Shown: positions 429 through 32,219 of the stretch, one piece after another
Position numbering within the stretch: the stretch's first letter is position 1
How the letters are laid out: each line of letters opens with the position of its first letter
From: Candidatus Roizmanbacteria bacterium CG_4_9_14_0_2_um_filter_38_17
GTDB taxonomy: Bacteria; Patescibacteriota; Microgenomatia; GCA-00278855
Direction of reading: 5' to 3'
Assembly (NCBI GenBank): GCA_002788855.1
Contig: PFSB01000006.1
Span: 99,292-163,291 of the forward strand
Length of the DNA: 64,000 nt
The notes under the pieces: generated by a model
Databases searched by the model: none
Seen by the model: the letters and a program-made list of their open reading frames with translations, nothing else
What the model was told of the DNA's origin: nothing
Made by a program: the position numbers and the translations under genes

Positions 429-1067
429 ATGAGTATTAAGCAGGTACTAGTGAAGTTAGGTGATAAGCCTTATTATTTGGCGATAGAGCGGGAACTGGAG
501 GGAATAGAAACTGTACTTGATCTGGGCTGTGGCGCAGACTCACCGCTGTCAGAGGTTGCTGGAAATTATACATCTGTTGGAGTAGATTTATTTACGAAAA
601 GCATAGAAATAAGTAAGCTCAAGAAAATACATGATAAATATATCCAATGTGATGTGACCAAAATTAATGAGAAGGTTAAACCAAAGTCGTTTGATGTGGT
701 TATAGCGTTGGATTTGATTGAGCATCTTGATAAAAAAGAGGGAATAAAATTACTTGAGAAAGTAGAAAAAATTGCGACAAAAAAAGTTATTATAATGACA
801 CCTAATGGCTATTATGATCAAGAACCATACGGAGGAAACCCTTACCAAGTTCACAGATCTGGCTGGAGTGTTGATGATTTTCAAAAACGAGGTTACAATG
901 TTAAGGGAATCAGAGGGTTAAGATATTTACGTGGTGAATGTGCAACTTTAAAATACAGACCTTGGTTTTTTTGGGGAGTAGTTGCAAGTATTACACAGTT
1001 ATTTTTATATAACTTTCCTAAGTTTTCATATCAGCTTTTTGCAGTAAAAAGTATTAATAATTCATGA
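429..1067 (+). CDS. Class I SAM-dependent methyltransferase
   Basis: Motif [13 protein letters not shown] and acidic motif II ([11 protein letters not shown]) typical of Methyltransf_11/12 fold; ATGA overlap with next gene. Confidence 0.7.
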
Positions 1068-2113
1068 CAAAAAAAGCATTAATAACTGGTTCGGCGGGTC
1101 TTATTGGTTCTGAAGCAGTGCGATTTTTCAGTAGAAAGAATTATGAAATCTTTGGTATTGATAACGATATGAGGGCTTATTTTTTTGGTAAGGAAGCGAG
1201 TACCGATTGGAATAGAAAAAAGCTTGAAGAAAGCCATCTAAACTATAAGCATCTGAGTATAGACATCAGAGATGAAAAAAAGATAGAGAAGGTATTTAGA
1301 CAGAATAAGTTTGACGTTGTTATACATACTGCCGCTCAGCCATCACATGATTGGGCAGCTAAGGAGCCTCTGACAGATTTTACGATAAATGCTAATGGGA
1401 CATTGATTTTGCTTGAAAATTTTCGCAAATATGCTCCTGACGGTGTCTTTATTTTCACGTCAACGAATAAAGTATATGGTGACCGTCCAAATTCACTTCC
1501 TTTTGTAGAATTAGAAACTCGTTATGAGTTGCCTAAAGATCATAGGTTTTATCAAGGAATAGATGAATCAATGAGTATAGACAATTCTGTACATAGTATC
1601 TTTGGTGCATCCAAGATTGCCGCGGATATTTTGGTTCAGGAATATGGTAAATATTTTGGTCTCAATACGGCTATCTTTAGAGGTGGATGTTTAACTGGTC
1701 CTGCTCATAGTGGTACTCAGTTGCATGGGTTTTTAGCTTACTTAGTTAAATGTATTGCAATCGGGTTAGAATATAAAATATTTGGGTATAAAGGGAAACA
1801 GGTGCGAGACAATATCCATTCATATGACTTGGTAAATGCTTTTTATCATGTTGTTCAAAACCCTCGAAAAGGAGAAGTGTATAATATGGGCGGATCTAGG
1901 CACTCAAATGTTTCCATGTTAGAGGCTATAGAGAAAATAGAAAAACGGCTAGGTAAAAAGGCTAAAGTTGTTTATATCGATGAAAATAGGATAGGAGATC
2001 ATATTTGGTATGTTTCAGATGTATCAAAATTTCAAAAGCATTATCCTAAGTGGGAATATAAATATGGAATTGACAGAATAATTGAAGAGCTATGTAACGT
2101 TTATAAGAAATGA
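1064..2113 (+). CDS. NAD-dependent sugar epimerase/dehydratase (extended SDR; CDP-paratose/UDP-hexose epimerase-like)
   Basis: N-terminal Rossmann [13 protein letters not shown], catalytic YGASK (YxxxK) motif, about 350 aa. Confidence 0.75.
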
Positions 2114-3177
2114 AGTATAAGAAAGTATTGATCACTGGGGGTGCGGGATTTGTAGGCTCTAACATTTGTCTTGCTCTTAAGAAAGAGTATGCAGGTATTC
2201 ATATTCTAGCCTTGGATAATTTGAGGAGGAGAGGATCAGAATTAAATGTGGGGCGTCTAGCGGATGCTGGAGTTGATTTTATACGAGGGGATGTACGAAA
2301 CCAGGAAGACTTGTCAGGAATAGATCCAGATCTGATTATTGAGTGTTCAGCAGAACCTTCTGCACAGGCTGGAGTGACATCAAGTCCAAGCTATGTTTTG
2401 TCAACAAATTTGATTGGTGCAATTAATTGTTATGAAGTAGCAAGGAAATGCTCAAGTGATGTCATATTTATATCTACAAGTAGAGTATATCCATATAGTG
2501 TTCTTGAAAATATAAAATATGAAGAGACTGAGTCAAGATATAAAATCCCTGAGAATATAGAAATGGCAGGTGTGTCTGTAGACGGTATTAGTGAGAAATT
2601 TCCTCTTCCAGGAAAAAGGACTTTTTATGGTGCTAGTAAGTTATCTGCTGAGCTTATTCTTGAAGAATATAGGGAGGTATATGGTGTAAATGCATCCATT
2701 ATTCGCTATGGAATGATAGCTGGTCCATGGCAGTTTGGCAAGGTTGATCAGGGAATAGTTGCACATTGGTTAGCTAAGCACAGTTTTGGTGGAGAACTAT
2801 CTTATATCGGATATGGTGGACTAGGCAAACAGGTTAGAGATATTGTGCACGTTGATGATGTTGTTGTCTTATTAAGATATCAGCTGGAACATCCAGCTGT
2901 ACTTACAAGTAAAATATATAATGCTGGAGGCGGAGTTGAAAACAGTATTTCTTTGTTAGAGTTAACTGATTATTGTCAGGAAGTTACAGGTAATACAATT
3001 AAAATTGGAAAGAATGACAAAGCAAGACTTGGCGATATTCCGCTATATTACACAGATAATTCAGAAATAACTAAGACTACGGGTTGGAAGCCAAATAAAT
3101 CCATACAAAACATTATCGAGGATACATATAAGTGGCTTATTAGTTACAAACAGCAACTTGTTGGGTTGGTAGGATGA
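2110..3177 (+). CDS. NAD-dependent sugar epimerase/dehydratase (extended SDR), paralog of previous gene
   Basis: [13 protein letters not shown] Rossmann motif, YGASK catalytic motif; translationally coupled (ATGA) to neighbours. Confidence 0.75.
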
Positions 3178-6100
3178 AGTGGTTAAAGGGTCGTAAGCAA
3201 GATATTTTAGGGCTCGCTATTCTCATTGCTATAAGCATGATTCCTTTAATTTGGGTTAGTGGCGGTTATTTGCTAGATGGGCACGATAATGTATTTCCTC
3301 TTGTGCCTCAAGTATTTTTACACGGTAGGTTATTTACATGGATATCAAATGAAGGTTTTGGACTTGATCAAACGCGCTTCATGGGAACAATACCTATGCA
3401 TTTGCTGGAGGCATTACCAGCGATGCTTGGATTTTCGATTACCGTTGCACAAAGATTTACATATATTTTTTGGATGTTGGCAATGTCACTATCGATGTAC
3501 TTATTTGTTCGAAGAACAGGTCTTGGAAATTGGGTTGTAGCAACAATAGCAGCAGTATTATATGTGATTAATTTTTATATATTACAAGCTTGGTTTATTG
3601 CTGAGGTAGCTAAATTTTCAGCGTACACAGCTTTACCTTTGCTTCTGCTGGTATTTTATGAGGTCTATCGTAAGCGGTTATCTATATTGACCGGATCGTT
3701 ACTAAATGGCTTAATCTTGTTTATATTTAATGCTGGTGGCTTGTTTGGCATTCCATTGTATGGAGGTTTAATTACCACTATTGTCGTATTTGTGCTTTTC
3801 TTCTCGCTGCATGATTGCCTTAAAGGTTCACTATCTACAGCTTTTCGGTTTTTGCTATTAATTTTAGGAACTTTAATTTTGGCTGTTTTGGCAAATATGT
3901 ATATGTTGTTGCCTGTGTTTTTTGAGCTTTCAAAGGCTGTAATTGACGGTGTTGCTAGTGTGGGCGGTGTGGAAGGGTTAATTGAGTGGGCGGGTGTTAT
4001 AAGCAAGAATACAAGCTATAATAACTTATTTAGATTGCAGGGTGTTTCGGAGTGGTATGACAATGCTCAGCATTCTTATGCTTCTAACTATTTAATGACT
4101 CCAGTGCTAATATTGGCAAGTTTTGTTCCGCTCGTAATTTTGATTCTACCCTTATATACATGGAAAACATGGTCTATAGCAAAAAAACACAGACCTTTTG
4201 TATTGTACCTCTATTGGTTATTCATTATTGGTTTTGTTCTGTCGGCCGGTACACATGCGCCATTGGGTTTTGTGTACAAGGCTATGATGAGATATATACC
4301 AGGTTTTTTGATATTTCGTACCCCGTATTATAAATTTGCACCTACAATATTCTTTTCGTTTTCCATTATTGCTGGAATTACAATTGGTTTTTTTATAGAC
4401 AGATTTAAACCTAAAATGCATTTAATTATGACTGTGGCCGTTGTGAGTTTGGTAGTTCTTTATCATTTTCCGTTTGTACAAACGAAACAATTTAATTGGA
4501 GAGATGACTTGCGTACTAGGCTCAAGGTGCCTGAATATGTGTTTGATTTTGCTGATTATATAAATAGAGCTGACACTGGGGATAACAGAGTGTTGGCTAT
4601 TCCTAATTTAAGCAGCTCAACCCAAGCGGATGTTTATAACTGGGGATTTTTTAGTCTATATCCTTTAACAAGGTACTTTACTAATAAGCCGGTGATAATG
4701 AACGACCAGCTACTTGATCGGCAGTCTCGCACAATAATAAATGAAATATATCGTAGTTTACTTATTGGAGACAAGCAATATTTTGAGCAATTAGCTAGGT
4801 TAGCAAGCATTAAATACCTGCTTGTGCGTAATGATTTTAATTATAAATTGGAATGGTCGAGATCGATTAGTCCGGATGAATATGAAGCCCAGATAAAAAG
4901 TTTTTATCCTAATATAACCAGTCTAACATTTGGTGAATGGACACTGTATACCATGCCCGTCAATTATTCTAATGGTGTTGTTTCAGTTTATAAGCCAATT
5001 GAAGTGATTAGTTCGGATATTACTAATCTACATAATTTACTGGGTACTCCTTATAGATATTCGCTTAACTCGATAATAGCTGATAGTGTTACGCAGGACA
5101 TGTATAAAGAAGCTAGTTATAGCTCATTTCTTAATTGTCGACTGTGTGAGGTTGAGAGAAATATCATGCATGTAGATTTTACTGCTTCACGGATTTTACC
5201 GAACTCTCCTCTTTTTAAGATAATTCAGTATAGAGAAAATAAGCAAATTAGCTCTGTTGTTGGTGTAGATAAAATAACCACACTTTTGGGAATAAGTAAT
5301 AAAAGAGTAGCCAGATTAATAAAGATGTATGAGCTTGATGTCAAAGATGAACAGGTACTTACCAAGACAATGGATGATATTATTAGTCAGACCGATATTT
5401 TGATTGCTGAGATAGAAAAGATAGAAAATACTGAGGAAAAACTAACGTTAGCTATAAAAGCATCAATGTATATAGATAAAGAACTTCAATATTTAAGAAA
5501 TCAGTTTAAGAATGAAGCTATACAAAGGGCAAGTAGTAGCATGAAGAGTAGATACTTGATGTTACTTCAAGAGTTTCAACAAGATCTATTAAATATTGAA
5601 AGTTATAAATTTGGAGGAAACATTGAAAAGGACAAGTTATTTATATTTCAAGTACCGCGTTCAGGACTTTATGGTTTTAGCTTAAAATATGATTCTAATT
5701 TAGGTAAAGTAGGTACCACTGTCGAATTGGTTATAGATAAAAGTGAATCTTTATTGGTAGAGATAAATAATGATTCTTGGATAGATATGGGTGATCTACC
5801 CTTAGACAAGGGCGAACATAGGTTAGAGATTAGGATAAATAATGAAGATATTGATATTTTAAAATGGGCAGAGACAGATTCAAGCCTTTATCCAGACAAA
5901 AGTTGCTATGGGGCAAAATTAGTCAATGATGATCCAATTGGTTTTGGTTCATTTAAAATGAGGTTTAAGAATCCTATCGCACAAGGTGAGGAATATATTT
6001 TCTATGAAATAAACGATGCAATAGAAGGTGGCGTGACTAATCTTAGTACTTTTGAGTATCAAGAAGATGTATCTGACACAACTGAAGATCTTCGATTTTA

Positions 6101-6584
6101 TGACGTTGAAGCAATGGGAAAAAGAGAATTTGTTTTTTGTGGCAACACACAAGAAGATAGCCTATCTATTCTTCCTCACACAACGCAAATATATTTTCCA
6201 GTTGTATATATGCGAGAGTTGGACCAACAGGTTATAGTGCATAAACTAGTTGTTGATTACACAAAAATTAATCCAACTCATTACAATGTGAATGTTATAG
6301 GTGATAATGGAGATGTAACAGTAGTTACATTAAATGAAAGATTTGACCCAGATTGGGAGCTCTTAATAACGGATGGTAGTGGTGAGACTAGCAAGGTGCA
6401 GAACCACTTTGAATCTGATTATTATGCTAATAGTTGGTTGATTCAGAAAGATGGAGATTATAAACTAGAGGTAAGGCACGCTAGTCAGCGAAGATTTACT
6501 GTAAGTGCAGTTATCAGTTTATTTTTTGCGGTTAGCTCTGGTGCATATATTTGTTACAAAAAATTTGTTAAAAAGAATGATTAA
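3174..6584 (+). CDS. Giant polytopic membrane protein, YfhO-like GT-C glycosyltransferase candidate (1136 aa) with large extracytoplasmic C-terminal domain and C-terminal TM anchor
   Basis: About 13 hydrophobic helices in first 450 aa, LLDGHDNVFPL loop near N-terminus, long beta-rich soluble domain, final TM helix (VISLFFAVSSGAYICY) as in YfhO-family proteins. Confidence 0.45.
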   Translation: MKWLKGRKQDILGLAILIAISMIPLIWVSGGYLLDGHDNVFPLVPQVFLHGRLFTWISNEGFGLDQTRFMGTIPMHLLEALPAMLGFSITVAQRFTYIFWMLAMSLSMYLFVRRTGLGNWVVATIAAVLYVINFYILQAWFIAEVAKFSAYTALPLLLLVFYEVYRKRLSILTGSLLNGLILFIFNAGGLFGIPLYGGLITTIVVFVLFFSLHDCLKGSLSTAFRFLLLILGTLILAVLANMYMLLPVFFELSKAVIDGVASVGGVEGLIEWAGVISKNTSYNNLFRLQGVSEWYDNAQHSYASNYLMTPVLILASFVPLVILILPLYTWKTWSIAKKHRPFVLYLYWLFIIGFVLSAGTHAPLGFVYKAMMRYIPGFLIFRTPYYKFAPTIFFSFSIIAGITIGFFIDRFKPKMHLIMTVAVVSLVVLYHFPFVQTKQFNWRDDLRTRLKVPEYVFDFADYINRADTGDNRVLAIPNLSSSTQADVYNWGFFSLYPLTRYFTNKPVIMNDQLLDRQSRTIINEIYRSLLIGDKQYFEQLARLASIKYLLVRNDFNYKLEWSRSISPDEYEAQIKSFYPNITSLTFGEWTLYTMPVNYSNGVVSVYKPIEVISSDITNLHNLLGTPYRYSLNSIIADSVTQDMYKEASYSSFLNCRLCEVERNIMHVDFTASRILPNSPLFKIIQYRENKQISSVVGVDKITTLLGISNKRVARLIKMYELDVKDEQVLTKTMDDIISQTDILIAEIEKIENTEEKLTLAIKASMYIDKELQYLRNQFKNEAIQRASSSMKSRYLMLLQEFQQDLLNIESYKFGGNIEKDKLFIFQVPRSGLYGFSLKYDSNLGKVGTTVELVIDKSESLLVEINNDSWIDMGDLPLDKGEHRLEIRINNEDIDILKWAETDSSLYPDKSCYGAKLVNDDPIGFGSFKMRFKNPIAQGEEYIFYEINDAIEGGVTNLSTFEYQEDVSDTTEDLRFYDVEAMGKREFVFCGNTQEDSLSILPHTTQIYFPVVYMRELDQQVIVHKLVVDYTKINPTHYNVNVIGDNGDVTVVTLNERFDPDWELLITDGSGETSKVQNHFESDYYANSWLIQKDGDYKLEVRHASQRRFTVSAVISLFFAVSSGAYICYKKFVKKND

Positions 6585-7065
6585 AAACCTTATAAATCGG
6601 GTATCTGAAGCTAGTACAAAGATGGATCTTAAATTTGGTTATACATTGATGATTGTGCTAGTAGTCATAGCAGTTTTGAGCAAAGTTCCTTATGCAAATT
6701 TATTCATAAAAATAGATATTATGACTATGATTCCATTGGTTATATTGGGTGTGTTTTTTCGTTTATTAGTTGGAGCGAGTCTGTGGTTAATAATACCAGT
6801 GCTTTTTCTACTTATACTAATTAGCAGTATTTCTGAGGCAGTGATTACATATACTTCATTTATATATGGACTATATTTAATTATTATTTCTCTTCTAAGC
6901 GTTACATATATGCTGTATTTATTAATCTTTTTTTCTGCTCTATTGCTAATAGATACAGTATTTGGAGTTGGTTTTTCAGAAATATTAGGTGTTTTTTTAT
7001 ATATATCTTTGGTAGGAGTTATTGTGAAATATAGCTATCAAGAGATGATTCAATCTAATAAATAG
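6577..7065 (+). CDS. Small polytopic membrane protein (hypothetical)
   Basis: Highly hydrophobic 160-aa product; start placed at MIKNL to avoid 80-nt overlap of track ORF 6505 with upstream gene. Confidence 0.35.
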   Translation: MIKNLINRVSEASTKMDLKFGYTLMIVLVVIAVLSKVPYANLFIKIDIMTMIPLVILGVFFRLLVGASLWLIIPVLFLLILISSISEAVITYTSFIYGLYLIIISLLSVTYMLYLLIFFSALLLIDTVFGVGFSEILGVFLYISLVGVIVKYSYQEMIQSNK

Positions 7066-8513
7066 TGTTGCTTAATAAGTTGAAATTAGGTTTAGTTTTG
7101 GTTGTTGTTTTTGCTGTGTATAGAGTTTGGTTTCGATTGGGAACTTTATCTGCTGGGGATTGGCCTTATCTGTATTTAGAAAATATTGGAGAATTTTCAT
7201 GGTTTCCAGAAATTAGATTTTTGTGGCTTGGATTATATTATCAGATTCCAGCTAAACTTTTTGTGCAAGTACTGGGATTATCATGGGAAGTGGTTGAGAG
7301 GGTTATATGGTTTGTACCTTTTGTACTGCTTTGTGTCTATTCAAGTTATCGTTTAACTAAATCATGGTTGGGGGTATTGGTTTATACAACCAGCACATAT
7401 ATATTAATGGTGGTTGGAGGGGGACAGATGGGGGTAGCTTTTGGATATGCACTGGCGCCTTTGGTGTTGGATTGGTTTGTAAGAGGTAGGAAAGGGTTAT
7501 TAGGAGGGTTATTTGTTTCTTTACAGTTAATGTTTGATCCTCGAATGGCATATATAACTTTGTTTGGGGTGGTTTTGTATTATCTAGTAACAGACTGGAA
7601 AAAAGTGAGGCTCATTATTATTCCTTTGATTATTGCATTTATTTTGAATCTATTTTGGATAGTTCCTATAATTATGTCTGGTACGGGGGAATATGGAGAT
7701 ATATACACAGGTGGAGAAATGGTAGAGTTTTTTAGTTTTGCAAAGTTTGAAAATGCAATTTCACTTTTTCATCCAAATTGGCCTGACAATATATTTGGAA
7801 AAGTGGGATTCCAAAGGCCTGAGTTTATGTTGCTGCCAATTTTGGCATTTTCCAGTCTTTTGTTCTCAAAAAAGCCTAAAATATTATTTTTTGCTTTACT
7901 AGGGTTAGTTGGTTCATTTTTGGCTAAAGGTGCAAATGAACCCTTTGGTATGGTCTATTTGTGGCTATTTGAACATGTTCCTGGATTTGTGATGTTTAGA
8001 GATCCTACTAAATGGTATCTATTAATTGCTTTAAGCTACTCTGTCCTTATTCCATATGTGCTTAATAGTTTCAAGGTTAAATGGGTTGTGTGGTTATTTA
8101 TTGTTTATTGGGTAATTTTAATAAGACCAGTTTGGCTAGGTCAGCTTACGGGTACATTTGAGCCAAAGGCGGTGCCAGGTGAGTATATTGAATTAAAGGA
8201 TTTTATTTATGAGCAAGATGGTGATTTTAAAACACTATGGATTCCTGGTAGGCAGAGATTTGGATTTGTATCCAAGAATCATCCGGCAATTGAAGCTTCA
8301 TCGTCAGCTGAGCTTTCTAGAAGTGAACTTCTAAATAAAAAGGTTAAGTATATTATTGTTCCTTACGATAATCGCGAGGAACTGTTTATTGAGGATCATA
8401 AGTATGTTCCAGCTCTTAGAGCTGAACTCATAGAGGAGCTTGGGCAGTTATCGTGGCTTGAGCATAGCCAAATAGAGAATATAGATATATTTGAAATTAA
8501 AGCAGATAAATAA
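7065..8513 (+). CDS. Polytopic membrane protein, possible GT-C family glycosyltransferase
   Basis: 482 aa, at least 10 predicted TM helices, aromatic-rich loops; embedded between other GT-C genes. Confidence 0.4.
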   Translation: MLLNKLKLGLVLVVVFAVYRVWFRLGTLSAGDWPYLYLENIGEFSWFPEIRFLWLGLYYQIPAKLFVQVLGLSWEVVERVIWFVPFVLLCVYSSYRLTKSWLGVLVYTTSTYILMVVGGGQMGVAFGYALAPLVLDWFVRGRKGLLGGLFVSLQLMFDPRMAYITLFGVVLYYLVTDWKKVRLIIIPLIIAFILNLFWIVPIIMSGTGEYGDIYTGGEMVEFFSFAKFENAISLFHPNWPDNIFGKVGFQRPEFMLLPILAFSSLLFSKKPKILFFALLGLVGSFLAKGANEPFGMVYLWLFEHVPGFVMFRDPTKWYLLIALSYSVLIPYVLNSFKVKWVVWLFIVYWVILIRPVWLGQLTGTFEPKAVPGEYIELKDFIYEQDGDFKTLWIPGRQRFGFVSKNHPAIEASSSAELSRSELLNKKVKYIIVPYDNREELFIEDHKYVPALRAELIEELGQLSWLEHSQIENIDIFEIKADK

Positions 8514-10186: not shown

Positions 10187-10196
10187 ATCTACAATA

Positions 10197-10484
10197 ATGC
10201 AGAGATCTGATTTATATAACAATACAAAAGATATTTTTTCTCATTATGGGGTTAAGAAAGCAGCAGTTTTTGGCTCGTATGCTCGTGGTGATAATAGAGA
10301 TGATAGTGATATTGACATTCTTGTTGAATTAGGTAGATCTATGGGTTTAATTGATTATTCTGGATTAAGGCTGGATTTACAGGATAGACTAGGGATGAAA
10401 GTAGATCTAGTTCAGTATAAAACAATAAAACCATCAATAAAGGAGTATATCTTAAAAGACGAAACTGTATTATTTCAAGCGTGA
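10197..10484 (+). CDS. Minimal nucleotidyltransferase (MNT) antitoxin of HEPN/MNT type II TA pair
   Basis: GSYARGD...DSDIDILV motif (GS-x9-Dx D Pol-beta NTase signature), 95 aa, 4-nt overlap with downstream HEPN gene. Confidence 0.75.
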   Translation: MQRSDLYNNTKDIFSHYGVKKAAVFGSYARGDNRDDSDIDILVELGRSMGLIDYSGLRLDLQDRLGMKVDLVQYKTIKPSIKEYILKDETVLFQA

Positions 10485-11822: not shown

Positions 11823-11827
11823 GTAAG

Positions 11828-13447: not shown

Positions 13448-13470
13448 TTTAAGGCTTAGCCTTATTTCGC

Positions 13471-18347: not shown

Positions 18348-18364
18348 AGATCGGATCTTTATTA
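18341..18364. repeat. REP-A palindrome (TATATAAAGATC-G-GATCTTTATTA)
   Basis: Near-perfect 11/12-bp-arm hairpin; same element flanks RAYT at 34619 and 35345. Confidence 0.7.
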
Positions 18365-18369
18365 ATTAT

Positions 18370-24327: not shown

Positions 24328-25499
24328 AAATTCTATTTGTCACTTATGATCTACCGTATCCACTTGATGCGGGAGGAAAAGTTCGTGCATATAACTTAAT
24401 AAAGGAACTAGCTAAAGAGAATGAGGTGACATTGTTTTCTTACTACCGTGATAACTCTCAGCTAAGTTATGTGGATGAACTGCGTAAATACTGTGCTAAC
24501 GTTCATCTCTTCAAGCGAGTAGCTGTATTTTCACTAAAGCATATAGTTAATACGATTTTGCATCCAAATCTCACTGCGCATATCTCACATTACTACCACT
24601 CCGGTCTTAGCCAAGAGCTGGATAAAGAATTACAAACTGGCATCTACGACCTACTACATCTGGAATCATTCTATACAAGTCATCTCTTGGGAGATTACAA
24701 CGTTACCCAGGTTTTGGGCACAGAAAATATTGAATGGAAGATATATCAAGGGCATTTCGAGATGAAATCTTTTACTAGTAGATTTCCACTGCAACTGGAA
24801 GCTTTTCGAACAAGGATGTTTGAGCAGTCTAGTTGGAAAAAAGCCGACGCGTTACTTGCGGTTTGCCTGTCTGATAAGGCTACAATTAGCGAACATACTA
24901 CGAAATCAGTGTACGAGATTCCAAATGGAGTGGATATTGATTATTTTTGCTACGAAAGTCCAACCATAGATATAAATAAGTTAAAGTTATTGTATGTAGG
25001 AGATTATGCCTATCTTCAGAATAGTGATGCAATTAGCTGGTTGTTAAAAGATATATACCCAGCAATAAGAGCCAAGTATCCTAATTCAACATTGACTATA
25101 GTTGGCAAGAATATTCCAGAGAATCTTGAAAAAAGCTATGGTGTAACTATCCAAAGAGATGTTGAAGATATTCGTGAAGTATATTCCGATGCAGATATGC
25201 TGCTTGCACCGCTTCGTATAAGCTCGGGAACTCAGTTTAAGATACTTGAGGCAATGGCTACTGGTGTAATTGTGCTTACAACGCCTACGGGGATACAGGG
25301 ATTAAATGCTAAACCCGGAAAGGAACTTGTTGTATTTAAAGATAAGAGAGATGTAGCATTGGCAATAGAAAATATTCTAAAGTCTCAAAATACAGCTGAA
25401 GAGATGTCCAAAAGAGCAAGAGAACTTGTTGAGAAAGAGTATAGCTGGAATATGATAGGCTCAAAATTAAGATCAATTTATAAAAATTTAGTGAAATGA
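24324..25499 (+). CDS. GT4 family glycosyltransferase
   Basis: C-terminal FKILEAMATGVIVLTT (glycos_transf_1). Confidence 0.7.
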   Translation: MKILFVTYDLPYPLDAGGKVRAYNLIKELAKENEVTLFSYYRDNSQLSYVDELRKYCANVHLFKRVAVFSLKHIVNTILHPNLTAHISHYYHSGLSQELDKELQTGIYDLLHLESFYTSHLLGDYNVTQVLGTENIEWKIYQGHFEMKSFTSRFPLQLEAFRTRMFEQSSWKKADALLAVCLSDKATISEHTTKSVYEIPNGVDIDYFCYESPTIDINKLKLLYVGDYAYLQNSDAISWLLKDIYPAIRAKYPNSTLTIVGKNIPENLEKSYGVTIQRDVEDIREVYSDADMLLAPLRISSGTQFKILEAMATGVIVLTTPTGIQGLNAKPGKELVVFKDKRDVALAIENILKSQNTAEEMSKRARELVEKEYSWNMIGSKLRSIYKNLVK

Positions 25500-26386
25500 A
25501 ATTGGCAGTAATTATTGTTAGTTATAATACAAAACCGTATCTTCAGAAGTGTTTAAAGACGTTAAGCAAGAGTAATTATCCTACTAAAGACTTATCTATT
25601 GTTGTGGTAGATAATGCGTCAACAGATGGAACAGTAGCGGAGCTTAAAGTGTTATTTCAAGATGTTACATGGGTTAAGCTGGATGAAAATACCGGATTTT
25701 CCCGTGCCAATAATATAGGAATTAAGCGAGCCGGTGAGGCTGATTATTATCTGTTTCTAAATCCCGACACAGAAGTTTTACCCAGTGGGTTGTCTAAGAT
25801 GGTCAGTTATCTAGAAAGCAATCCAGATGTGGGTATTTTAACTCCGTATGTTAAATTAACAGATGGTTTAATTGACGATGCATGTCATCGGGGATTTCCA
25901 ACTCCCTGGAATGCTTTTTGTCATTTTTCTGGATTAGCTTCGATGTTCCCACGCTCGTTGCTGTTTAATGGTTATCACTTAGGCTATAGGAGTCTAGATA
26001 AGATACACGAAATTGATGCGTGCGTAGGCGCGGCGATGTTAGTAAGAAAAAAAGTAGGCGAAGATATAGGCTGGTGGGATGAAGATTTTTTTTGGTATGG
26101 TGAAGATCTGGATTTTTGTTATAAGGCCAAAGAGAGAGGAAATAAGATAGTATTTAATCCCGATGTTGTAGTACTGCATCATAAGGGAGTATCTGGAGGA
26201 ATTAAAAAGAAGTCTAGTAATTATTCAAACGTAGATAGATTGACTAAAAAAAGGGCACAGGAAGCAAGATTCGATGCAATGATTATTTTTTATAAGAAAC
26301 ACTATACTAACAAGTATCCCAAAATATTAACATTAATTGTTACTTCGTTTATTCGAATAATCAAAGTAATTAAAGTGGGTATATGA
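25496..26386 (+). CDS. GT2 family glycosyltransferase
   Basis: LAVIIVSYNTKPYLQKCL...VVVDNASTDGT. Confidence 0.75.
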   Translation: MKLAVIIVSYNTKPYLQKCLKTLSKSNYPTKDLSIVVVDNASTDGTVAELKVLFQDVTWVKLDENTGFSRANNIGIKRAGEADYYLFLNPDTEVLPSGLSKMVSYLESNPDVGILTPYVKLTDGLIDDACHRGFPTPWNAFCHFSGLASMFPRSLLFNGYHLGYRSLDKIHEIDACVGAAMLVRKKVGEDIGWWDEDFFWYGEDLDFCYKAKERGNKIVFNPDVVVLHHKGVSGGIKKKSSNYSNVDRLTKKRAQEARFDAMIIFYKKHYTNKYPKILTLIVTSFIRIIKVIKVGI

Positions 26387-27429
26387 GAATTGGAATTGAT
26401 ACTCGCTTACAAAATGAGAGCGGTGTAGGTAGATACATACGGAATTTATTGCTTAATCTTAGGAAGCTTAATAGCGGCCATGAATATGTTTCAATTAGCC
26501 CAGATATTAAATGGCACTCAATTAAAGAGCAGCTTATAATGCCATTTTTATTAGGAAATAAATATAACTTGGTTCATTTTCCTTACTTCAATGTCCCTAT
26601 TTTTTACTCTGGAAAATATGTGATGACTGTACACGATCTTATTATTAATACTTATGCTACAGGTAGAGCAAGTACGCTGAATCCAGTATTGTATTGGTTG
26701 AAGAGAATGGCATATTTATTGGTATTAAGTCTCGCGGTGAGACGCGCATGCAGAGTAATTGTGCCAAGTTTTGCTGTTAAAGAACAGTTGCTTCAAGCAT
26801 ATAATATAGGACCAGAGAAAATATCTGTAATATATGAAGGTGTTGATAAGAAACTAAGCGAAGCTACTGGAGGAGGAGATGTTTTAAATAGATATCAACT
26901 TAAAGGTCAGCAATATTTGTTATATGTGGGCAATGCATACCCACATAAAAATCTTGAAACTCTGCTTGTGACTTTTGATAAGATTAGAGAGGGTAATCTT
27001 AAGTTGATACTAGTTGGTAAGTATGACTATTTTTACAACCAGTTCATTGCTGCTAACATGAATAGAAATATTATTTTTACAGGATATGTTGAAGATAATG
27101 AGCTGGCAATTTTGTATAGAGAAGCTTTGTTACTTATCCAGCCTTCGCTAATGGAGGGGTTTAGTTTACCCACAGTCGAAGCAATGGCCAGAGGTTGCCC
27201 TGTTCTTTGCAGTGATATTCCTGTTCATCGTGAAATTTGTCTTGATGCTGCTTTATATTTTAAATCCCAAGATTCTCAAGATCTATATAGTAAGCTTATG
27301 GAGCTGATTGCAGATAGAGACAAACGTAATAATCTCATAGAAAAAGGTAAAGCTAGAGTAACAATATTCTCATGGGAGGATACGGCTGCTTTGACCCTTC
27401 AAACATATGAAAGTTGCTTTAGTTTATGA
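26383..27429 (+). CDS. GT4 family glycosyltransferase
   Basis: EGFSLPTVEAMARGCPVLCSDIPVHREI (EX7E). Confidence 0.75.
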   Translation: MRIGIDTRLQNESGVGRYIRNLLLNLRKLNSGHEYVSISPDIKWHSIKEQLIMPFLLGNKYNLVHFPYFNVPIFYSGKYVMTVHDLIINTYATGRASTLNPVLYWLKRMAYLLVLSLAVRRACRVIVPSFAVKEQLLQAYNIGPEKISVIYEGVDKKLSEATGGGDVLNRYQLKGQQYLLYVGNAYPHKNLETLLVTFDKIREGNLKLILVGKYDYFYNQFIAANMNRNIIFTGYVEDNELAILYREALLLIQPSLMEGFSLPTVEAMARGCPVLCSDIPVHREICLDAALYFKSQDSQDLYSKLMELIADRDKRNNLIEKGKARVTIFSWEDTAALTLQTYESCFSL

Positions 27430-28516
27430 TCGGGTAAACAAATGGGGAGGCGCTGAAAGAGTGTTGCTAGCTCTTCATGAGATTTGGCCAGATGCACCTT
27501 TGTTTACAGGTGTATACAATCCGCAGTCTGCGAAATGGGCTGATGTTTTTGAAGTTAAGCCCTCGCTGATAGATAAGTTAATATTTACTCGTACACGCCA
27601 TGAGCTGTTTGCTTGGCTGATGCCATTTGGTTTTGAAAACTTTTTATTTGATGATTATGATCTAGTTATATCAGTAACTTCAGCTGAGGCAAAAGGTATT
27701 ATAACTAAGCCCAAAACTCTCCATATTTGTTACTGTCTAACCCCAACTAGGTATTTATGGAGCAATGATAAGCAGTATCGAAATAGCATTCATCCAGCTA
27801 TTAGGTGGGTAGCCGATCCTGTGTTAACGTACCTTAGAAAATGGGATAAAGTGGCTGCCTCACGACCAGATGCTTATGTTGCTATTTCAGAGTATGTCAG
27901 TAACCGAATAAAGCGCTACTATAATCGAGACTCAGTAGTTATTTATCCCCCCGTATCACAGCTTGCAGACACCCATTCCAGGAGCGTGATACACACTCCT
28001 GAAATGGGTAAGGGTTATTATTTAGTTGTTAGTCGACTTGTTAAGTATAAAAAAGTGGATTTAGCGATAAAAGCGTGTGAGCAACTAAAACACTCGCTTG
28101 TGATTATTGGAACAGGATCAGAAAAGGACTACTTGCAGAAGTTAGCTGGTAATAATACAACTTTTATATCTGACGTGAATGATGGTGAGCTGGCTGGTTA
28201 TTATCAGAGTTGCAAAGCTCTCATAGCGCCGCAAGAGGAAGATTTTGGTTTGGTTGCCGCGGAAGCTCAGTCAATGGGTAAGCCGGTAATAACTTTTTAT
28301 AAAGGTGGAGTTAGTGAAATTGTGAAAGACGGAGTTACAGGTAAGTATTTTAATAAGCAGACGGTTGCCTCGCTTATAGAAGCCTTGGCAGACTTCGATG
28401 CATCTGTGTATAATAGCAAAGAAATAAGAAGCAAAAGTAAAAAATTTAGTAAACTTAACTTTATGCGTAAATTTGAAAAACATTCGTTGAGTATGTTAAA
28501 TACATACAATAGATAA
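27407..28516 (+). CDS. GT4 family glycosyltransferase
   Basis: FGLVAAEAQSMGKPVITFYKGGVSEIV (EX7E region). Confidence 0.7.
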   Translation: MKVALVYDRVNKWGGAERVLLALHEIWPDAPLFTGVYNPQSAKWADVFEVKPSLIDKLIFTRTRHELFAWLMPFGFENFLFDDYDLVISVTSAEAKGIITKPKTLHICYCLTPTRYLWSNDKQYRNSIHPAIRWVADPVLTYLRKWDKVAASRPDAYVAISEYVSNRIKRYYNRDSVVIYPPVSQLADTHSRSVIHTPEMGKGYYLVVSRLVKYKKVDLAIKACEQLKHSLVIIGTGSEKDYLQKLAGNNTTFISDVNDGELAGYYQSCKALIAPQEEDFGLVAAEAQSMGKPVITFYKGGVSEIVKDGVTGKYFNKQTVASLIEALADFDASVYNSKEIRSKSKKFSKLNFMRKFEKHSLSMLNTYNR

Positions 28517-28527
28517 ATACTAAACAT

Positions 28528-29610
28528 ATGAAAGCAGTAATTTTTGCAGGTGGTGTAGGAACAAGATTGTGGCCGCTGTCTAGAAAAAAATCCCCCAAAC
28601 AATTTGAGCAAATTGTAGGTAATAGCTCCACTCTTCAATTATCAGTTGAGCGTTTAACATCGAGTTTTACGCCTGAACAAATATATATATCTACAGGAAT
28701 GCCATATGTAGATATGGTCTCGGATCAGCTTCCAGATATACCTAAAGATAATATTATTGGTGAACCTGAAATGCGTGATGTGGGTCCAGCTGTTGGTTTA
28801 ATATCTGCGATCTTACGTAAAGATGCTCCTGGTGAGCCATTTGCAATATTATGGAGTGATCATTTGGTTAAAAATGTGAAGCTATTCAACCGTATCTTAG
28901 GAGTTGGTGGAAAATTAGTTGAAAAAGATAAAGACAGTATAGTCTTTATTGGTCAAACCCCACGCTTTGCTAGTGAAAACTTAGGATGGATAGAAAGAGA
29001 TAAAAAACAAAATGAGATAGAGGGGATAGATGTATATGGATTTAAAAGCTGGAAATATCGACCAGATAAAGTTACAGCAGATAAGTTTTTCAAGAGTGGT
29101 AAACATCTCTGGAATCTTGGTTATTTTGTTACGACACCAGAGTTTTTACTTAAGCAGTATAAAAAATATGTTCCAGAAATGTACGAAAAGCTCCAGAAAA
29201 TAGTCGAATTAAGAGGAAAAGCTGGGTATGAAAAAAGGCTTAAGGAGATATATCCAACTTTAGAAAAAATAAGCTTCGATAATGCAATCCTAGAAAAAAT
29301 AGAGACTGGAAATAGATATGTAATCGCGGAAGACATCGGGTGGAGCGATGTGGGTGCCTGGGAGGCTTTAAAAGAGGCATTAGAGGATGAGCCAGGGCAG
29401 AATATAACTAAGGGGAAGGTTATTATAAATAATTGCAGTGATAGCTTAATATATAGCTATACGGGTCAGACCGTTGCGGCCATAGATCTTGACCATATGA
29501 TGATTGTAAATACTGAAGATGTGCTCTTGATTTGTCCTAAAAAATCTACACCAAAAGTTAAAGAATTGGTGAATAGCTTAGTAGGCACGGATAATGATCA
29601 TCTTACATAA
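28528..29610 (+). CDS. manC: Mannose-1-phosphate guanylyltransferase (GDP-mannose pyrophosphorylase, no PMI domain)
   Basis: IFAGGVGTRLWPLSRKKSPKQF N-terminal NTP-transferase signature; 360 aa. Confidence 0.75.
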   Translation: MKAVIFAGGVGTRLWPLSRKKSPKQFEQIVGNSSTLQLSVERLTSSFTPEQIYISTGMPYVDMVSDQLPDIPKDNIIGEPEMRDVGPAVGLISAILRKDAPGEPFAILWSDHLVKNVKLFNRILGVGGKLVEKDKDSIVFIGQTPRFASENLGWIERDKKQNEIEGIDVYGFKSWKYRPDKVTADKFFKSGKHLWNLGYFVTTPEFLLKQYKKYVPEMYEKLQKIVELRGKAGYEKRLKEIYPTLEKISFDNAILEKIETGNRYVIAEDIGWSDVGAWEALKEALEDEPGQNITKGKVIINNCSDSLIYSYTGQTVAAIDLDHMMIVNTEDVLLICPKKSTPKVKELVNSLVGTDNDHLT

Positions 29611-29613
29611 ATA

Positions 29614-30249
29614 ATGTATCCCAAACTTAAACGCGTTTTTGATCTTGTTTGTACAACAATTTTAATGATTGTTTTTTTGCCCATTGCTTTGTTTACGGCA
29701 ATTGCTATTAAATTGGATACAAAGGGTCCAGTCTTTGCAGATACCCCAGAGCGAGTAGGAAAAAATGGTGTACCTTTTAAGATGTATAAATTTCGTTCAA
29801 TGATTATGGATGCTCATAATTTACTTAGAAAAGACCCCAAGTTGAGAGTATTATACGAGCAGTATAAAAAGAATAGTTACAAGTTGGTTGAAGATCCACG
29901 TGTAACAGTAGTGGGTAAGTTTATTCGTAAACATTCTGTTGACGAGCTTCCACAGCTAATCAATGTGATTCGTGGTGAGATGAGCTTAGTTGGTCCCAGA
30001 GCTTATTATCCTGACGAACTAAAGGATCAGCAAAAAAAATATCCACATACACAAAAATCTGTGCAGAAGGTACTTTCTATCAAACCAGGAATCACTGGTA
30101 TCTGGCAGGTATCAGGTAGGTCTGAGGTGAACTTTGATAAACGAATTGCTATGGATGCAAAGTATGCAAGTAAACGATCATTGTTGTATGATATTTCTAT
30201 TCTTCTTAAAACACCTTGGGCCATGATTGGTGGAAAAGGAGCGGTGTAA
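29614..30249 (+). CDS. Small initiating phosphoglycosyltransferase (bacterial sugar transferase, WbaP/WcaJ C-terminal-domain type)
   Basis: One N-terminal [10 protein letters not shown] and [21 protein letters not shown] motifs. Confidence 0.8.
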
Positions 30250-30251
30250 AT

Positions 30252-32219
30252 ATGGATTTTAAAAAAATAGAAATAAATAACCAACCAGAAGCTCAAGTTG
30301 AGACTAAAGGTTCAAGCAGAAGGAGACTTAAGGTGGGCTTTCCCAAGCTTAAATTCAGTAAAAAAACTGGAATAATCTTGACAGCTCTACTAGGAATTCC
30401 GCTTATATTACTAATTGTTTTGGGTGTAGTCGTGGGTATTCCAGCTCGCCAAATTTATGCAGATGCTAAAGTAGCTAAGGATCAACTTCAGGTAACCAAT
30501 GCAGCTATAAAAAAGCAAAATCTCAAAGATGCTAAAGAAAGCTTAAAAGACTCCAAAGACAAACTTACAGTTCTTAATGCTTCTGTTAGTAAGCTTAACT
30601 GGTTTGGATCCCTACCAGTTGTTGGTGCCTACCAAAAAGATTTGAAAAGTTTGGTGACAGCGGGGATAGCAGCTGTTGAGGGAGGTCAAATTGCGGTAGA
30701 TGCGATTGAGCCATATGCAGATTTATTAGGCTTAGAGGAAGGGACCTCATTTGTAAATAAATCTACCGAAGATCGCTTGCAAACAGCTGTGACGACAATA
30801 GGTAAACTGAGCCCAGCGTTAGATGAGATTGCAGGAAAATTGACTATTGTAAGAGATGAAATTGGGAGCATTGATCCAGCTAGATATCCAGAAAAGTACA
30901 AAGACCAGGAGGTAAGAGTTAAGATTGTAGACGCTAAGGCTCAAGTTAACGATCTAGCAGATCTGTTTATTGACGCGAAGCCATTTTTAACCGCGCTACC
31001 TGATCTAATGGGGGCAGACGAAGCAAAAACATATCTTTTCCTTTTTCAGAATGACAAAGAACTACGTCCAACGGGTGGCTTTATTACAGCCTATGCATAC
31101 TTCCGGATGCACAAGGGTAAAATTGAGGTAATTCGCTCAGATGATATCTACAATCTAGATAATGCTAGACGAAAGAAAGTTGCCGCTCCTGAAGAGCTAT
31201 TAAAATATCATAAAGAGGTCTATGAGCTAACCTTAAGAGACAGTAATTTATCTCCAGATTTTAGGGAATCAATGTTGTTATTTGAGGAGTTATATAGTGA
31301 TGTTTCGGGTAATTTGGAGATAGATGGAATCTTTGCTTTAGATACGCATATGTTGGCAGAGTCGATGAAAATTCTTGGTCCGATAAATGCATATGGTACA
31401 ACTTTTACAACTGAACCCGATGATCGTTGCGGTGGCTGTCCGCAAGTGGTGTATGAACTGGAGGAATATGCGGACAAACGAGTCGGCTATATACGAGAAA
31501 ATAGAAAAGATATTATTGGAGTATTAATGTCCCAAATTATGCAAAAAGCGTTAGGAGTATCTCCTGGTCAGTACTGGGGTCGATTGTTCCAGATGACACT
31601 TGACGAAGTTGGGCAGAAGCATTTTATTGCATATTTCCATGATAAAGACGCTCAAGCAGGAGCAGAGGCACTTAACTTTGCTGGCAGGATAAAGGATTTT
31701 GATGGAGATTACTTGCATGTTAATGATACTAACTTTGCTGGAGCAAAATCTAATATGTTTACAAATCATACGGTTGAACAAGAAATAGATATTGCTAAGG
31801 ATGGGACAGTTACAAAGACTTTAACCTTAAGTTATAAAAATACAGAACCAGGTTCTCCTGGTTGTAACTTAGAGCGCGGAGGCCTTTGTTTGAATGGATT
31901 GCTTAGAAACTGGGTACGTATTTACACACCAGAAGGATCCCAGCTTCTGGACTTTAAAGGTTCAGAGACCGATCCAGTGGAGAAGAATGAATTAGGAAAG
32001 ACGGTTTTTGAAGGATTCTTTACAGTGCGACCTGAGGGACAAGCGCAGCTAAAAGTTTCGTATAAGTTGCCGTTTAAGGTGAGCTCTACTGAGGACTATA
32101 ATATGTTAATTCAAAAACAAGCTGGTACAGAAGGTCATAAATATATTATTAAACTGAATGGTAAAATGGTTGAAGAGTTTGATCTTATTACAGATAAAGA
32201 ACTTCAACTCACCCTCTAG
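30252..32219 (+). CDS. Membrane-anchored extracytoplasmic protein, DUF4012-like
   Basis: Single N-terminal TM (GIILTALLGIPLILLIVLGVVVGI), coiled-coil region, conserved-looking RPTGGFITAYAYF segment; start set to ATG 30252. Confidence 0.4.
   Translation: MDFKKIEINNQPEAQVETKGSSRRRLKVGFPKLKFSKKTGIILTALLGIPLILLIVLGVVVGIPARQIYADAKVAKDQLQVTNAAIKKQNLKDAKESLKDSKDKLTVLNASVSKLNWFGSLPVVGAYQKDLKSLVTAGIAAVEGGQIAVDAIEPYADLLGLEEGTSFVNKSTEDRLQTAVTTIGKLSPALDEIAGKLTIVRDEIGSIDPARYPEKYKDQEVRVKIVDAKAQVNDLADLFIDAKPFLTALPDLMGADEAKTYLFLFQNDKELRPTGGFITAYAYFRMHKGKIEVIRSDDIYNLDNARRKKVAAPEELLKYHKEVYELTLRDSNLSPDFRESMLLFEELYSDVSGNLEIDGIFALDTHMLAESMKILGPINAYGTTFTTEPDDRCGGCPQVVYELEEYADKRVGYIRENRKDIIGVLMSQIMQKALGVSPGQYWGRLFQMTLDEVGQKHFIAYFHDKDAQAGAEALNFAGRIKDFDGDYLHVNDTNFAGAKSNMFTNHTVEQEIDIAKDGTVTKTLTLSYKNTEPGSPGCNLERGGLCLNGLLRNWVRIYTPEGSQLLDFKGSETDPVEKNELGKTVFEGFFTVRPEGQAQLKVSYKLPFKVSSTEDYNMLIQKQAGTEGHKYIIKLNGKMVEEFDLITDKELQLTL

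Follow-up and report, generated by a model that had tools for sequence, protein, structure and literature searches.

We analysed a 64-kb window of contig PFSB01000006.1 from an uncultured, ultra-small bacterium of the candidate phyla radiation (CPR; Microgenomates), and in particular the glycosylation genes at 429-32219 (all positions are window coordinates). By its predicted gene content this is a genuine envelope glycan gene region. Its main element is block B (16708-32219), a predicted, translationally coupled core operon of 13 genes, which sequence comparison assigns to the vertically inherited gene set of the Microgenomates (Microgenomatia in GTDB). The operon centres on a gene for a 1028-residue fusion protein (19832-22918), the two halves of which are predicted to be membrane-embedded glycosyltransferases (GTs) of the GT-C fold, the first of class B (GT-C_B) and the second of class A (GT-C_A). 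With modest confidence we propose that a single conserved envelope glycan, containing mannose and O-acetyl groups, is assembled on undecaprenyl diphosphate (Und-PP) by the products of the core operon; variable and accessory gene blocks would then decorate it. The original prediction had described the region as one contiguous plus-strand array. All of the open reading frames (ORFs) that it listed are present where it had placed them, and the region holds 24 long ORFs and several small ones; the array itself, however, falls into two blocks, block A (429-9826) and block B, which are separated by two toxin-antitoxin (TA) modules and a block of three minus-strand genes (12119-16511). Judged from comparison with related loci, the "megacluster" is a composite of the class-wide core operon (block B), a trio of genes restricted to a sublineage, a decoration block of variable content (block A with 10 kb or more upstream of it) and a local TA insertion.

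We fetched 80 loci, assigned their ORFs to the window proteins by the best blastp match, and scanned the distribution of the fusion in one genome per species. The fusion is encoded in at least 573 species-level genomes, and its named carriers are Gottesman-, Levy-, Roizman-, Woese- and Shapirobacteria or "Patescibacteria group". Almost without exception the genes recur in the order half-GT4, GT4a, acetyltransferase, GT2a, fusion, PMT_2, GT4b, GT2b, GT4c, GT4d, ManC, phosphoglycosyl transferase (PGT), DUF4012 and RecO. The order downstream of the fusion was maintained in all 49 evaluable Microgenomates loci, which contained the genes for PMT_2 (49), GT4b (49), GT4c (48), GT4d (48), ManC (48), PGT (47), DUF4012 (44) and GT2b (42). 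Upstream of the fusion, GT4a and the acetyltransferase were found in 59 of the 59 evaluable loci, GT2a in 55 and the half-GT4 gene in 48. The fusion itself is merely 33-41% identical across these syntenic loci. The maintenance of the order at such low identity, together with the occurrence in at least 573 species-level genomes, indicates that block B is a core operon and not a variable O-antigen island. This class-wide conservation, brought out by the synteny comparison, had been overlooked in the original prediction, as had the two-domain make-up of the central protein. Many third-party-annotation metagenome-assembled genomes with the operon (L006, L008-L011 and others) are titled "uncultured Gammaproteobacteria", Lysobacterales, Acidiferrales or Limnocylindrales, and these titles are probably wrong.

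The 13 operon genes of the window overlap or sit no more than 11 nt apart, as calculated from their coordinates. They are followed by RecO, by glycyl-tRNA synthetase (GlyRS) and then by the division and cell wall (dcw)/peptidoglycan cluster, which comprises MraZ, RsmH, a penicillin-binding protein (PBP), Mur ligases, MurA, GlmU, GlmS, FemAB, a DgkA-like gene, MraY, MurD, FtsW and MurG. RecO, plus GlyRS where the locus extends that far, also follows the operon in many other genomes. On the other side, the content 5' of the half-GT4 gene differs among genomes and includes pairs of AftD-like and mini-GT-C genes, pairs of short-chain dehydrogenase/reductase (SDR) genes, extra GT2s and other polytopic proteins. 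Scans for sigma-70 promoters and intrinsic terminators at the block borders gave matches at chance level.

Family calls were made with Pfam and NCBIfam at their curated cut-offs, and single-sequence searches of the fusion and of two further polytopic proteins (3174-6584 and 7065-8513) against these libraries (Pfam down to E≤10) and against PDB sequences yielded no usable match. In comparison with solved structures, the fusion matched Pmt4 (20.1), ArnT (17.4), AglB (17.0), Pmt2 (16.3) and PglB (15.2) and, among the polymerases of the SEDS (shape, elongation, division and sporulation) family, FtsW (14.0) and RodA (12.8); the N-terminal domain (N-domain) was found to have a WaaL/SEDS-type fold. 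On account of these matches to PMT/ArnT-type and SEDS-type enzymes, the N-terminal approximately 530 residues are assigned in the model to class B (WaaL/Wzy/SEDS-like) and the C-terminal approximately 490 residues (C-domain) to class A (PMT/ArnT-like). The N-domain scored 18.2 bits against PF04932 (Wzy_C), below the cut-off of 31.7, and PF04932 was found in 53 of 120 fusion homologues among the matches listed, where the NCBI name is "O-antigen ligase family protein". Compared with WaaL (PDB 7TPG/7TPJ; CAZy GT121), inverting Wzy and SEDS proteins (clan GT-C1), the N-domain differs in its sub-threshold Wzy_C score, and also in an approximately 115-residue, β-rich extracytoplasmic insert (residues 285-400). 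No lipopolysaccharide (LPS) genes were found in the window, and lipid A-core therefore cannot be the acceptor here. The centre of the insert is a low-confidence, Gly-rich, low-complexity loop, GGGGSGGGGNSAGSG (window 20837-20881; residues 336-350), the length and composition of which vary among homologues, with Pro/Thr-rich stretches in some. In regards to the C-domain, most members of its family have no Pfam match. Compared with PMT/ArnT (GT39/GT83), it also occurs stand-alone, in a 562-residue protein encoded just upstream of the window (hhalign, 98.3%), and has no cognate donor synthase of the GtrB/ArnC/Ppm1 type among the window GT2s.

The candidate catalytic residues T234-x-S236-R237, R280, D436 and D568-D569 are invariant among 37 homologues (38-84% identity), and D568-D569 lies just past the first helix of the C-domain. 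R237 of the TxSR motif and R280 are a candidate Arg pair for binding the diphosphate of Und-PP, and would be the counterparts of R191 and R265 of WaaL. In the motif ATDNDYYRMLGETGILG, the invariant D436 stands where the His of the ligases is inferred to sit. The arrangement A-T-D436-N-D-Y...L-G-E-T-G-I-L-G is similar to the motif of SEDS proteins, represented by A-T-T-D-S-I-F...G-E-E-T-G-F-I-G in the FtsW encoded in the window. A published comparison of these families (PMC10920833) reports that the acceptor-activating residue is His in O-antigen ligases but acidic (Asp or Glu) in inverting Wzy polymerases and SEDS proteins. Because D436 is an Asp and not the His of the ligases at this position, polymerisation appears more likely than ligation as the activity of the N-domain.

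The remaining operon genes encode the PMT_2 protein, predicted cytoplasmic sugar enzymes, the PGT and the DUF4012 protein. The ManC-like protein exceeded the cut-offs of PF00483 (95 bits) and PF22640 (33 bits) and matched TIGR01479 with an E value of 6.5e-64 over residues 2-353, the guanylyltransferase part; this match falls below the equivalog cut-off because the protein lacks the phosphomannose isomerase (PMI) domain. The "WbaP-type small PGT" of the original prediction is supported by a Bac_transf (PF02397) score of 203 bits against a cut-off of 27. With one N-terminal hydrophobic segment (residues 16-34), the Asp-Glu dyad motif DELPQL at residue 110 and an alignment with the C-terminal catalytic part of WbaP, it is a predicted monotopic PGT. 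The DUF4012 protein consists of an N-terminal transmembrane (TM) segment and an extracytoplasmic body, and its gene always adjoins that of the PGT. Méheust et al. (PMC6744442) noted an enrichment of this family in CPR and Gram-positive bacteria, the one related statement that our literature search yielded.

Four of the five GT4 proteins predicted earlier are full-length enzymes, and GT4a shows weak similarity to PglJ/PglH. The fifth (16708-17244) is only the N-terminal (Glyco_transf_4) half of a GT-B enzyme, and its gene overlaps the start of GT4a by 4 nt. We considered a pseudogene or split gene and ruled it out, as the half-GT4 is a separate ORF of approximately 180 codons in 59 related loci and GT4a is complete alone; it is a conserved gene of putatively subunit-like character. 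The two GT2 proteins had been taken for candidate polyprenyl-phosphate sugar synthases. Their GT2 family stands, and the synthase type does not. A profile built from both window GT2s and 26 positional orthologues aligned over most of its length with the chondroitin synthase K4CP (E 1.9e-33) and with polypeptide N-acetylgalactosaminyltransferase (ppGalNAc-T), and over residues 59-218 with GlfT2 (E 4e-5). The alignments with dolichol-phosphate mannose synthase (DPMS; 4e-15), ArnC (7e-11) and GtrB (2.5e-9) covered only the generic nucleotide-binding N-terminal 115-135 residues (2-135), and no GtrB or ArnC family of NCBIfam was matched at E≤1e-3. Within NCBIfam, a rhamnosyltransferase subfamily aligned over approximately two-thirds of the length, and a weak similarity to PglI was seen. 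Because the full-length kinship is with K4CP/ppGalNAc-T and not with GtrB/ArnC/DPMS, GT2a and GT2b have the appearance of standard GTs for the extension of acceptors that are lipid-linked or polymeric.

From these assignments we infer the following substrates and order of steps. GDP-mannose would be supplied by ManC, and polyprenyl phosphate would be primed by the small monotopic PGT. The four GT4s, the two GT2s, the half-GT4 and the WcaF-like acetyltransferase would extend the lipid-linked oligosaccharide at the cytoplasmic face, giving a unit of up to approximately seven sugars. A protein other than those assigned in the operon would flip the unit outward, where the WaaL/Wzy-like N-domain of the fusion would take the Und-PP-glycan as its donor. 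Outside the membrane, single sugars would be added by the C-domain of the fusion, which is PMT/ArnT-like, and by the neighbouring PMT_2 protein. The DUF4012 protein may have an accessory role on the extracytoplasmic side, perhaps as a co-polymerase or a scaffold. The variable block (429-9826, extended upstream by at least 10 kb), with its SDRs, methyltransferase, AftD-like giant, mini GT-C and PMT_2 proteins, would supply and attach lineage-specific decorations, and the minus-strand trio probably adds a non-sugar, phospho-type substituent. The original claim that a lipid-linked oligosaccharide route with PGT and GT4s exists alongside many GT-C proteins in this CPR glycosylation region agrees with the family calls. 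The locus is also not a standard one with Wzx/Wzy/Wzz and without GT-C enzymes, since its Wzy/WaaL-like module forms one protein with a GT-C_A module.

Several results weigh against this proposal. The hhalign comparison of the N-domain with the window FtsW gave the expected motif pairing at a non-significant level (E 0.015, 3% probability), and profiles of the whole fusion and of the N-domain failed to reach WaaL among the PDB sequences, so that the equivalence of the catalytic residues is unsupported at the sequence level. The correspondence between D436 and the WaaL His is accordingly weak, depending on motif similarity and one non-significant local alignment. Neither a flippase (Wzx, ABC or GtrA), nor Wzz or another polysaccharide co-polymerase (PCP), nor an LCP ligase was found in or beside the operon among the window ORFs and ten polytopic neighbours from other genomes, and none of these proteins matched Pfam GtrA or Polysacc_synt. 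Export and anchoring steps are therefore missing from the locus, although Wzx and Wzz may be encoded in other parts of the genome. The polytopic neighbours in other genomes, searched as flippase candidates, included PMT_2, MBOAT, YfhO-like and EamA proteins, with no Wzx among them. Profile comparison of the window GT2s yielded no GtrB/ArnC/Ppm1-like polyprenyl-phosphate sugar synthase that could serve the GT-C_A modules. Finally, a conserved, non-variable glycan fits general protein O-glycosylation equally well.

One of the closest known counterparts is the exopolysaccharide (EPS) locus of Bifidobacterium longum 105-A (PMC5412050), a Wzx/Wzy-dependent Gram-positive heteropolysaccharide locus, in which, as here, a priming PGT is found beside DUF4012 with several GT4s and GT2s, an acetyltransferase and a Wzy_C-family enzyme acting on an Und-PP-linked unit. 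Unlike Wzx/Wzy-dependent Gram-positive loci, the operon described here contains neither a Wzx flippase nor a Wzz/tyrosine-kinase module, has its Wzy/WaaL-like module fused to a GT-C_A module, is accompanied by five further GT-C_A modules (four in the window and the 562-residue protein just upstream), and is conserved across the class instead of varying among strains.

General protein O-glycosylation is the strongest of the alternatives. A fixed Und-PP-linked glycan of heptasaccharide size would be made as in the pgl systems of Campylobacter and Neisseria, the N-domain would be a PglL-type O-oligosaccharyltransferase (O-OTase) acting on pilins, S-layer or other surface proteins, and the PMT-like modules would O-mannosylate proteins directly, like actinobacterial Pmt. 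The composition is indeed pgl-like, with a small PglC-type PGT, several GT4s, GT2s, a hexapeptide acetyltransferase and a WaaL-family transferase corresponding to PglL; PMC3643930 places PglL O-OTases and WaaL ligases in one family. Three modules have PMT-family similarity, Wzz and LCP genes were not found in the window, and the pathway does not vary across the class, a tendency shared by general glycosylation systems. On the other hand, PglB, a PglK/PglF flippase and bacillosamine genes are not present here, the acetyltransferase is WcaF-like (O-acetyl) and not PglD-like, no Pfam PglL-specific domain was matched in the window, and no candidate target protein adjoins the operon. The candidate catalytic residue also differs, with an Asp apparently at the catalytic His position of ligases and OTases, as in polymerases and SEDS proteins, which is a weak argument. 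We consider O-glycosylation a serious but less likely role of the operon, and a polymer assembled on Und-PP is the reading that we follow below.

The other polytopic proteins bear on a second alternative. Six GT-C modules occur in five window proteins, and four more are encoded within 10 kb upstream. Of the "three or four ArnT/PMT-like GT-C proteins" predicted earlier, two are confirmed by Pfam PMT_2, and the remaining polytopic proteins (3174-6584, 7065-8513 and 19832-22918) are placed in GT-C only through their predicted structures and the comparison of profiles. On one or another of these grounds (Pfam, structure or profile), all five are GT-C proteins. The giant protein at 3174-6584, formerly called YfhO-like, had no Pfam match even at E≤10, including YfhO (PF09586) and PF11847. 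PF11847 (GT-C_AftD/DUF3367) was nevertheless carried by 25 of its 77 homologues, and its family profile matched the AftD structures 6w98 and 6wbx (E 5.5e-5) over approximately 100 residues. Its first approximately 600 residues are homologous to the entire product of ORF 7065 (7065-8513; hhalign 99.8% probability, E 5e-29). Hydropathy shows the architecture of AftD, with TM segments within residues 11-435 and at 1108-1126 and approximately 650 non-hydrophobic residues between them. The giant is thus AftD-like in its predicted organisation, in which an N-terminal polytopic catalytic module (approximately residues 1-600) is followed by an extensive extracytoplasmic region and, at the C-terminus, by a TM helix. 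Since no genes of the decaprenyl-phosphate-arabinose pathway were seen in the window, the sugar transferred is probably not arabinofuranose. None of the 77 matches exceeded 33% identity, and the protein itself was not among them, whereas relatives of its neighbours reached 72-92% in the same database; either the gene evolves faster or is turning over, or closer relatives were missed by the word-index search.

ORF 7065 has more than 1,200 homologues, almost none with a Pfam domain; the few with organism names belong to CPR Microgenomates. An AlphaFold model built from 38 homologues (pLDDT 86.6, pTM 0.86) superimposes on solved GT-C_A enzymes. In these homologues G31-D32 is invariant and W33-P34 nearly so, directly after TM1 in the first extracytoplasmic loop. 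The model places the protein in GT-C_A, with a polyprenyl-phosphate-linked sugar as its putative donor. Compared with mycobacterial AftD (PF11847, PDB 6W98/6WBX) and AftA, the sequence similarity of the giant is marginal, and ORF 7065 encodes a minimal, 482-residue version without the large soluble domain. PF09586 was carried only by one distant homologue of ORF 7065 (P0083) and by one neighbour in another genome.

Three-component systems (GtrA/GtrB/GtrV; CsbB/YfhO; GacI/GacL) resemble the present region in that several GT-C proteins presumably modify an already assembled polymer on the outer side of the membrane. Their logic requires a polyprenyl-phosphate sugar synthase of the GtrB/CsbB/Ppm1 type. 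The defining GT2 synthase and small flippase were sought here and not found, and no window protein matched Pfam YfhO. The suggested classic pairing of GtrB/CsbB with YfhO, or of Ppm1 with Pmt, thus does not hold, as the GT2s are not GtrB/ArnC/DPMS-like, no GtrA or Wzx flippase was found in the window and the giant is not YfhO. The best candidate for such a synthase, and a weak one, is a 281-residue GT2 encoded upstream of the window, which shows weak similarity to AglJ and Dol-P-hexose transferases.

These GT-C proteins would also suit a lipoglycan or glycolipid of the mycobacterial type (phosphatidylinositol mannosides, lipomannan and lipoarabinomannan), in which GT4 mannosyltransferases use GDP-mannose from ManC and GT-C enzymes (AftD-like and PMT_2-like) extend the chain from polyprenyl-phosphate sugars into a membrane-anchored, mannan-like polymer. 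ManC, several GT4s, many GT-C_A enzymes with AftD/AftA-like folds among them, and a weak resemblance of ORF 7065 to the MmpA family of Corynebacterineae in NCBIfam are in line with such a product. However, the conserved PGT and the WaaL/Wzy-like module favour block transfer from Und-PP over stepwise, phosphatidylinositol-anchored growth, and this makes the lipoglycan route less likely. In addition, no Ppm1-like polyprenyl-phosphate mannose synthase was found among the window GT2s, and the AftD-like genes lie in the variable part, outside the conserved core. We therefore judge the lipoglycan reading quite improbable and retain the Und-PP-linked polymer.

The stretch between blocks A and B is itself composite. 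The MNT/HepT and Phd/ParE genes are type II TA modules between the variable and the conserved glycosylation blocks, and they are not part of the glycan pathway. One relative (L088, fusion 57% identical) has the same flanking genes and no TA modules at this position. The trio of genes for a flavin adenine dinucleotide (FAD) oxidase, a sulfatase-like protein and a methyltransferase-like protein, divergent from the operon and directly upstream of it, is kept in this relative (1382-5942 of that locus) and in L087 (fusion 84% identical; 190-4586), as in the window, and only in such close relatives. A recent insertion of the whole 9.8-16.7 kb interruption was considered and partly rejected, as the trio is kept in both relatives and only the TA modules are missing, in L088. 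The sulfatase-like protein resembles phospho-substituent transferases of the GacH/LtaS type; having an LtaS/EptA/GacH-like architecture, it is a candidate enzyme of this kind, and the trio may make or attach a non-sugar substituent. The FkbM methyltransferase that had been predicted beside it could not be confirmed, and the FAD amine-oxidase-like gene had gone unmentioned. The product of 15093-16511 gave no FkbM (Methyltransf_21) match, only sub-threshold matches to Methyltransf_12, FtsJ and Methyltransf_23 and weak matches to NCBIfam methyltransferases. By contrast, the labels methyltransferase, SDR (two genes), hexapeptide acetyltransferase, ManC, DUF4012 and sulfatase-like were all borne out by Pfam or NCBIfam matches above the cut-offs.

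Glycosylation genes extend at least 10 kb beyond the start of the window (locus L085, 1-9956, same contig). The upstream stretch encodes three more PMT/PMT_2 proteins (748, 700 and 575 residues), a Fcl-like (GDP-fucose-synthase-like) SDR, the 562-residue GT-C-like protein, a GT2 and a GT4. In block A, residue 180 of SDR1 is Phe where the catalytic Tyr of extended SDRs is expected (FGASK, compared with YGASK in SDR2), and SDR1 may be an inactive enzyme or one with unusual catalysis. In many genomes, such pairs of SDR genes are found upstream of the operon. For block A, the TA modules, the nearby Y1-transposase-like genes and the variable upstream content suggest a horizontally mobile island of the ordinary O-antigen or capsule kind (a standard LPS/capsule locus, merely large). 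As an account of the whole region this reading is highly improbable. For block B it is contradicted by the synteny seen in all 49 loci at a fusion identity of 33-41%, with RecO (and GlyRS) as conserved context, by the uniform G+C content (0.33-0.39) and by the failure to find Wzx, Wzz or LPS genes in the window. Its plausibility is confined to block A with the upstream extension.

Table 1. Features of the glycosylation region and its borders. Positions are window coordinates; TM, transmembrane; SAM, S-adenosylmethionine; AcT, acetyltransferase.
Feature	Position	Strand	Basis or remark
GT4 gene, 416 aa, 5' part	1-384	-	Glycos_transf_1; L085 8706-9956, same contig; continues past window start; part of upstream extension
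Class I SAM-dependent methyltransferase, 212 aa	429-1067	+	Methyltransf_11, E 9e-10, above cut-off
SDR1, extended SDR, NDP-sugar epimerase/dehydratase-like	1064-2113	+	Epimerase, E 8e-42
SDR2, extended SDR, NDP-sugar epimerase/dehydratase-like	2110-3177	+	Epimerase, E 7e-36
AftD-like GT-C (putative), 1136 aa	3174-6584	+	PF11847 of homologues, family profile, hhalign, hydropathy
Small polytopic membrane protein, ~162-186 aa, start uncertain	6505-7065	+	4-5 hydrophobic segments; no Pfam or NCBIfam match
Compact GT-C_A (predicted), 482 aa, AftD/AftA-like "mini" paralogue of the giant	7065-8513	+	Predicted structure, profile comparison
PMT_2 GT-C (ArnT/PMT-like), 437 aa	8513-9826	+	PF13231, 40.7 bits (cut-off 26.1)
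Membrane ORF, 73 aa	9827-10048	+	After GT-C gene; a relative has a 72-aa ORF in the same place
MNT/HepT module	10197-10807	+	Pfam
Phd/ParE module	11547-12079	+	Pfam
FAD amine-oxidase-like oxidoreductase, PRK07233 family	12119-13447	-	NF005560, 459 bits (cut-off 252)
Membrane-anchored sulfatase-superfamily protein	13471-15096	-	PF00884, 29.4 bits (cut-off 25); four N-terminal TM segments
Protein of 472 aa with weak C-terminal class-I methyltransferase-like region	15093-16511	-	Sub-threshold matches only
Stand-alone half-GT4, 178 aa	16708-17244	+	Glyco_transf_4 only; first gene of conserved operon
GT4a	17241-18347	+	Glycos_transf_1, E 3e-38; 59/59 loci
WcaF-like hexapeptide O-acetyltransferase (AcT)	18334-18963	+	Hexapep; NF007797, E 2.5e-28; 59/59 loci
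GT2a, K4CP/ppGalNAcT/GlfT2-like type	18963-19835	+	Pfam, NCBIfam, orthologue profile
Fusion N-domain (~aa 1-530), WaaL/Wzy-like GT-C_B (predicted)	19832-21430	+	Predicted structure, profile comparison
Fusion C-domain (~aa 540-1028), PMT/ArnT-like GT-C_A (predicted)	21449-22918	+	Predicted structure, profile comparison
PMT_2 GT-C, 470 aa	22915-24327	+	PF13231, 35.8 bits (cut-off 26.1); 49/49 loci
GT4b	24324-25499	+	Pfam; TIGR03087-like, E 5.5e-60
GT2b, paralogue of GT2a	25496-26386	+	Pfam, orthologue profile
GT4c	26383-27429	+	Pfam
GT4d	27407-28516	+	Pfam
ManC-type mannose-1-phosphate guanylyltransferase-like, without PMI domain	28528-29610	+	NTP_transferase and ManC_GMP_beta-helix; TIGR01479
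Small monotopic polyprenyl-phosphate glycosyl-1-phosphate transferase (PglC/WbaP C-terminal type), 211 aa	29614-30249	+	Bac_transf
DUF4012 protein, 667 aa	30216-32219	+	PF13196, 85.4 bits (cut-off 28), E 7e-24; 44/49 loci

The window has a G+C content of approximately 36% and a strongly positive GC skew, and a tRNA scan found no tRNA genes in it. Beyond the operon, two IS200/Y1-transposase-like genes (RayT-like, with the HUH motif; 34643-35344 and 38886-39482) lie on either side of the MraZ, RsmH and PBP genes that open the dcw cluster, and a CofD-like gene is found at 50270-51244. Within the peptidoglycan cluster, the stretch 53619-57277 encodes an aminotransferase of the DegT type, a peptidyltransferase of the FemAB family and a DgkA-type (undecaprenol/diacylglycerol) kinase adjoining MraY.

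To our knowledge, almost nothing has been established by experiment about the cell envelope of CPR/Patescibacteria, the surface of which presumably mediates episymbiotic attachment to the host. Our full-text literature search gave no description of the 13-gene operon, the GT-C_B/GT-C_A fusion, the half-GT4 gene or the missing Wzx/Wzz/LCP genes. The class-wide 13-gene operon, its central fusion, the dedicated half-GT4 gene and a locus without Wzx/Wzz/LCP genes thus appear to be undescribed, whereas lipid-linked glycan assembly followed by GT-C decoration is already known in kind. A large, ordinary polysaccharide locus would be routine, and block A with its upstream extension is probably exactly that. 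The gene-for-gene conservation of block B, in contrast, points to a core envelope function and not to a serotype-like accessory one. Tentatively, and with reserve, the operon might specify a Microgenomatia-wide core envelope glycopolymer, a counterpart of teichoic acids or arabinogalactan, made by a bifunctional enzyme in which a polymerase/ligase for Und-PP-glycans (GT-C class B) is physically joined to a transferase that uses polyprenyl-phosphate sugars (GT-C class A). The pathway would include the half-GT4 as a dedicated subunit and DUF4012 as a partner, and would lack canonical Wzx/Wzz/LCP machinery. The fusion of a WaaL-like with a PMT-like module represents a natural experiment in how the two classes of GT-C chemistry can be coupled. 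The 13 genes offer a concrete, reconstitutable set for a surface glycan and a phylogenetic marker, and their product is a likely target for lectins, phages and host recognition.

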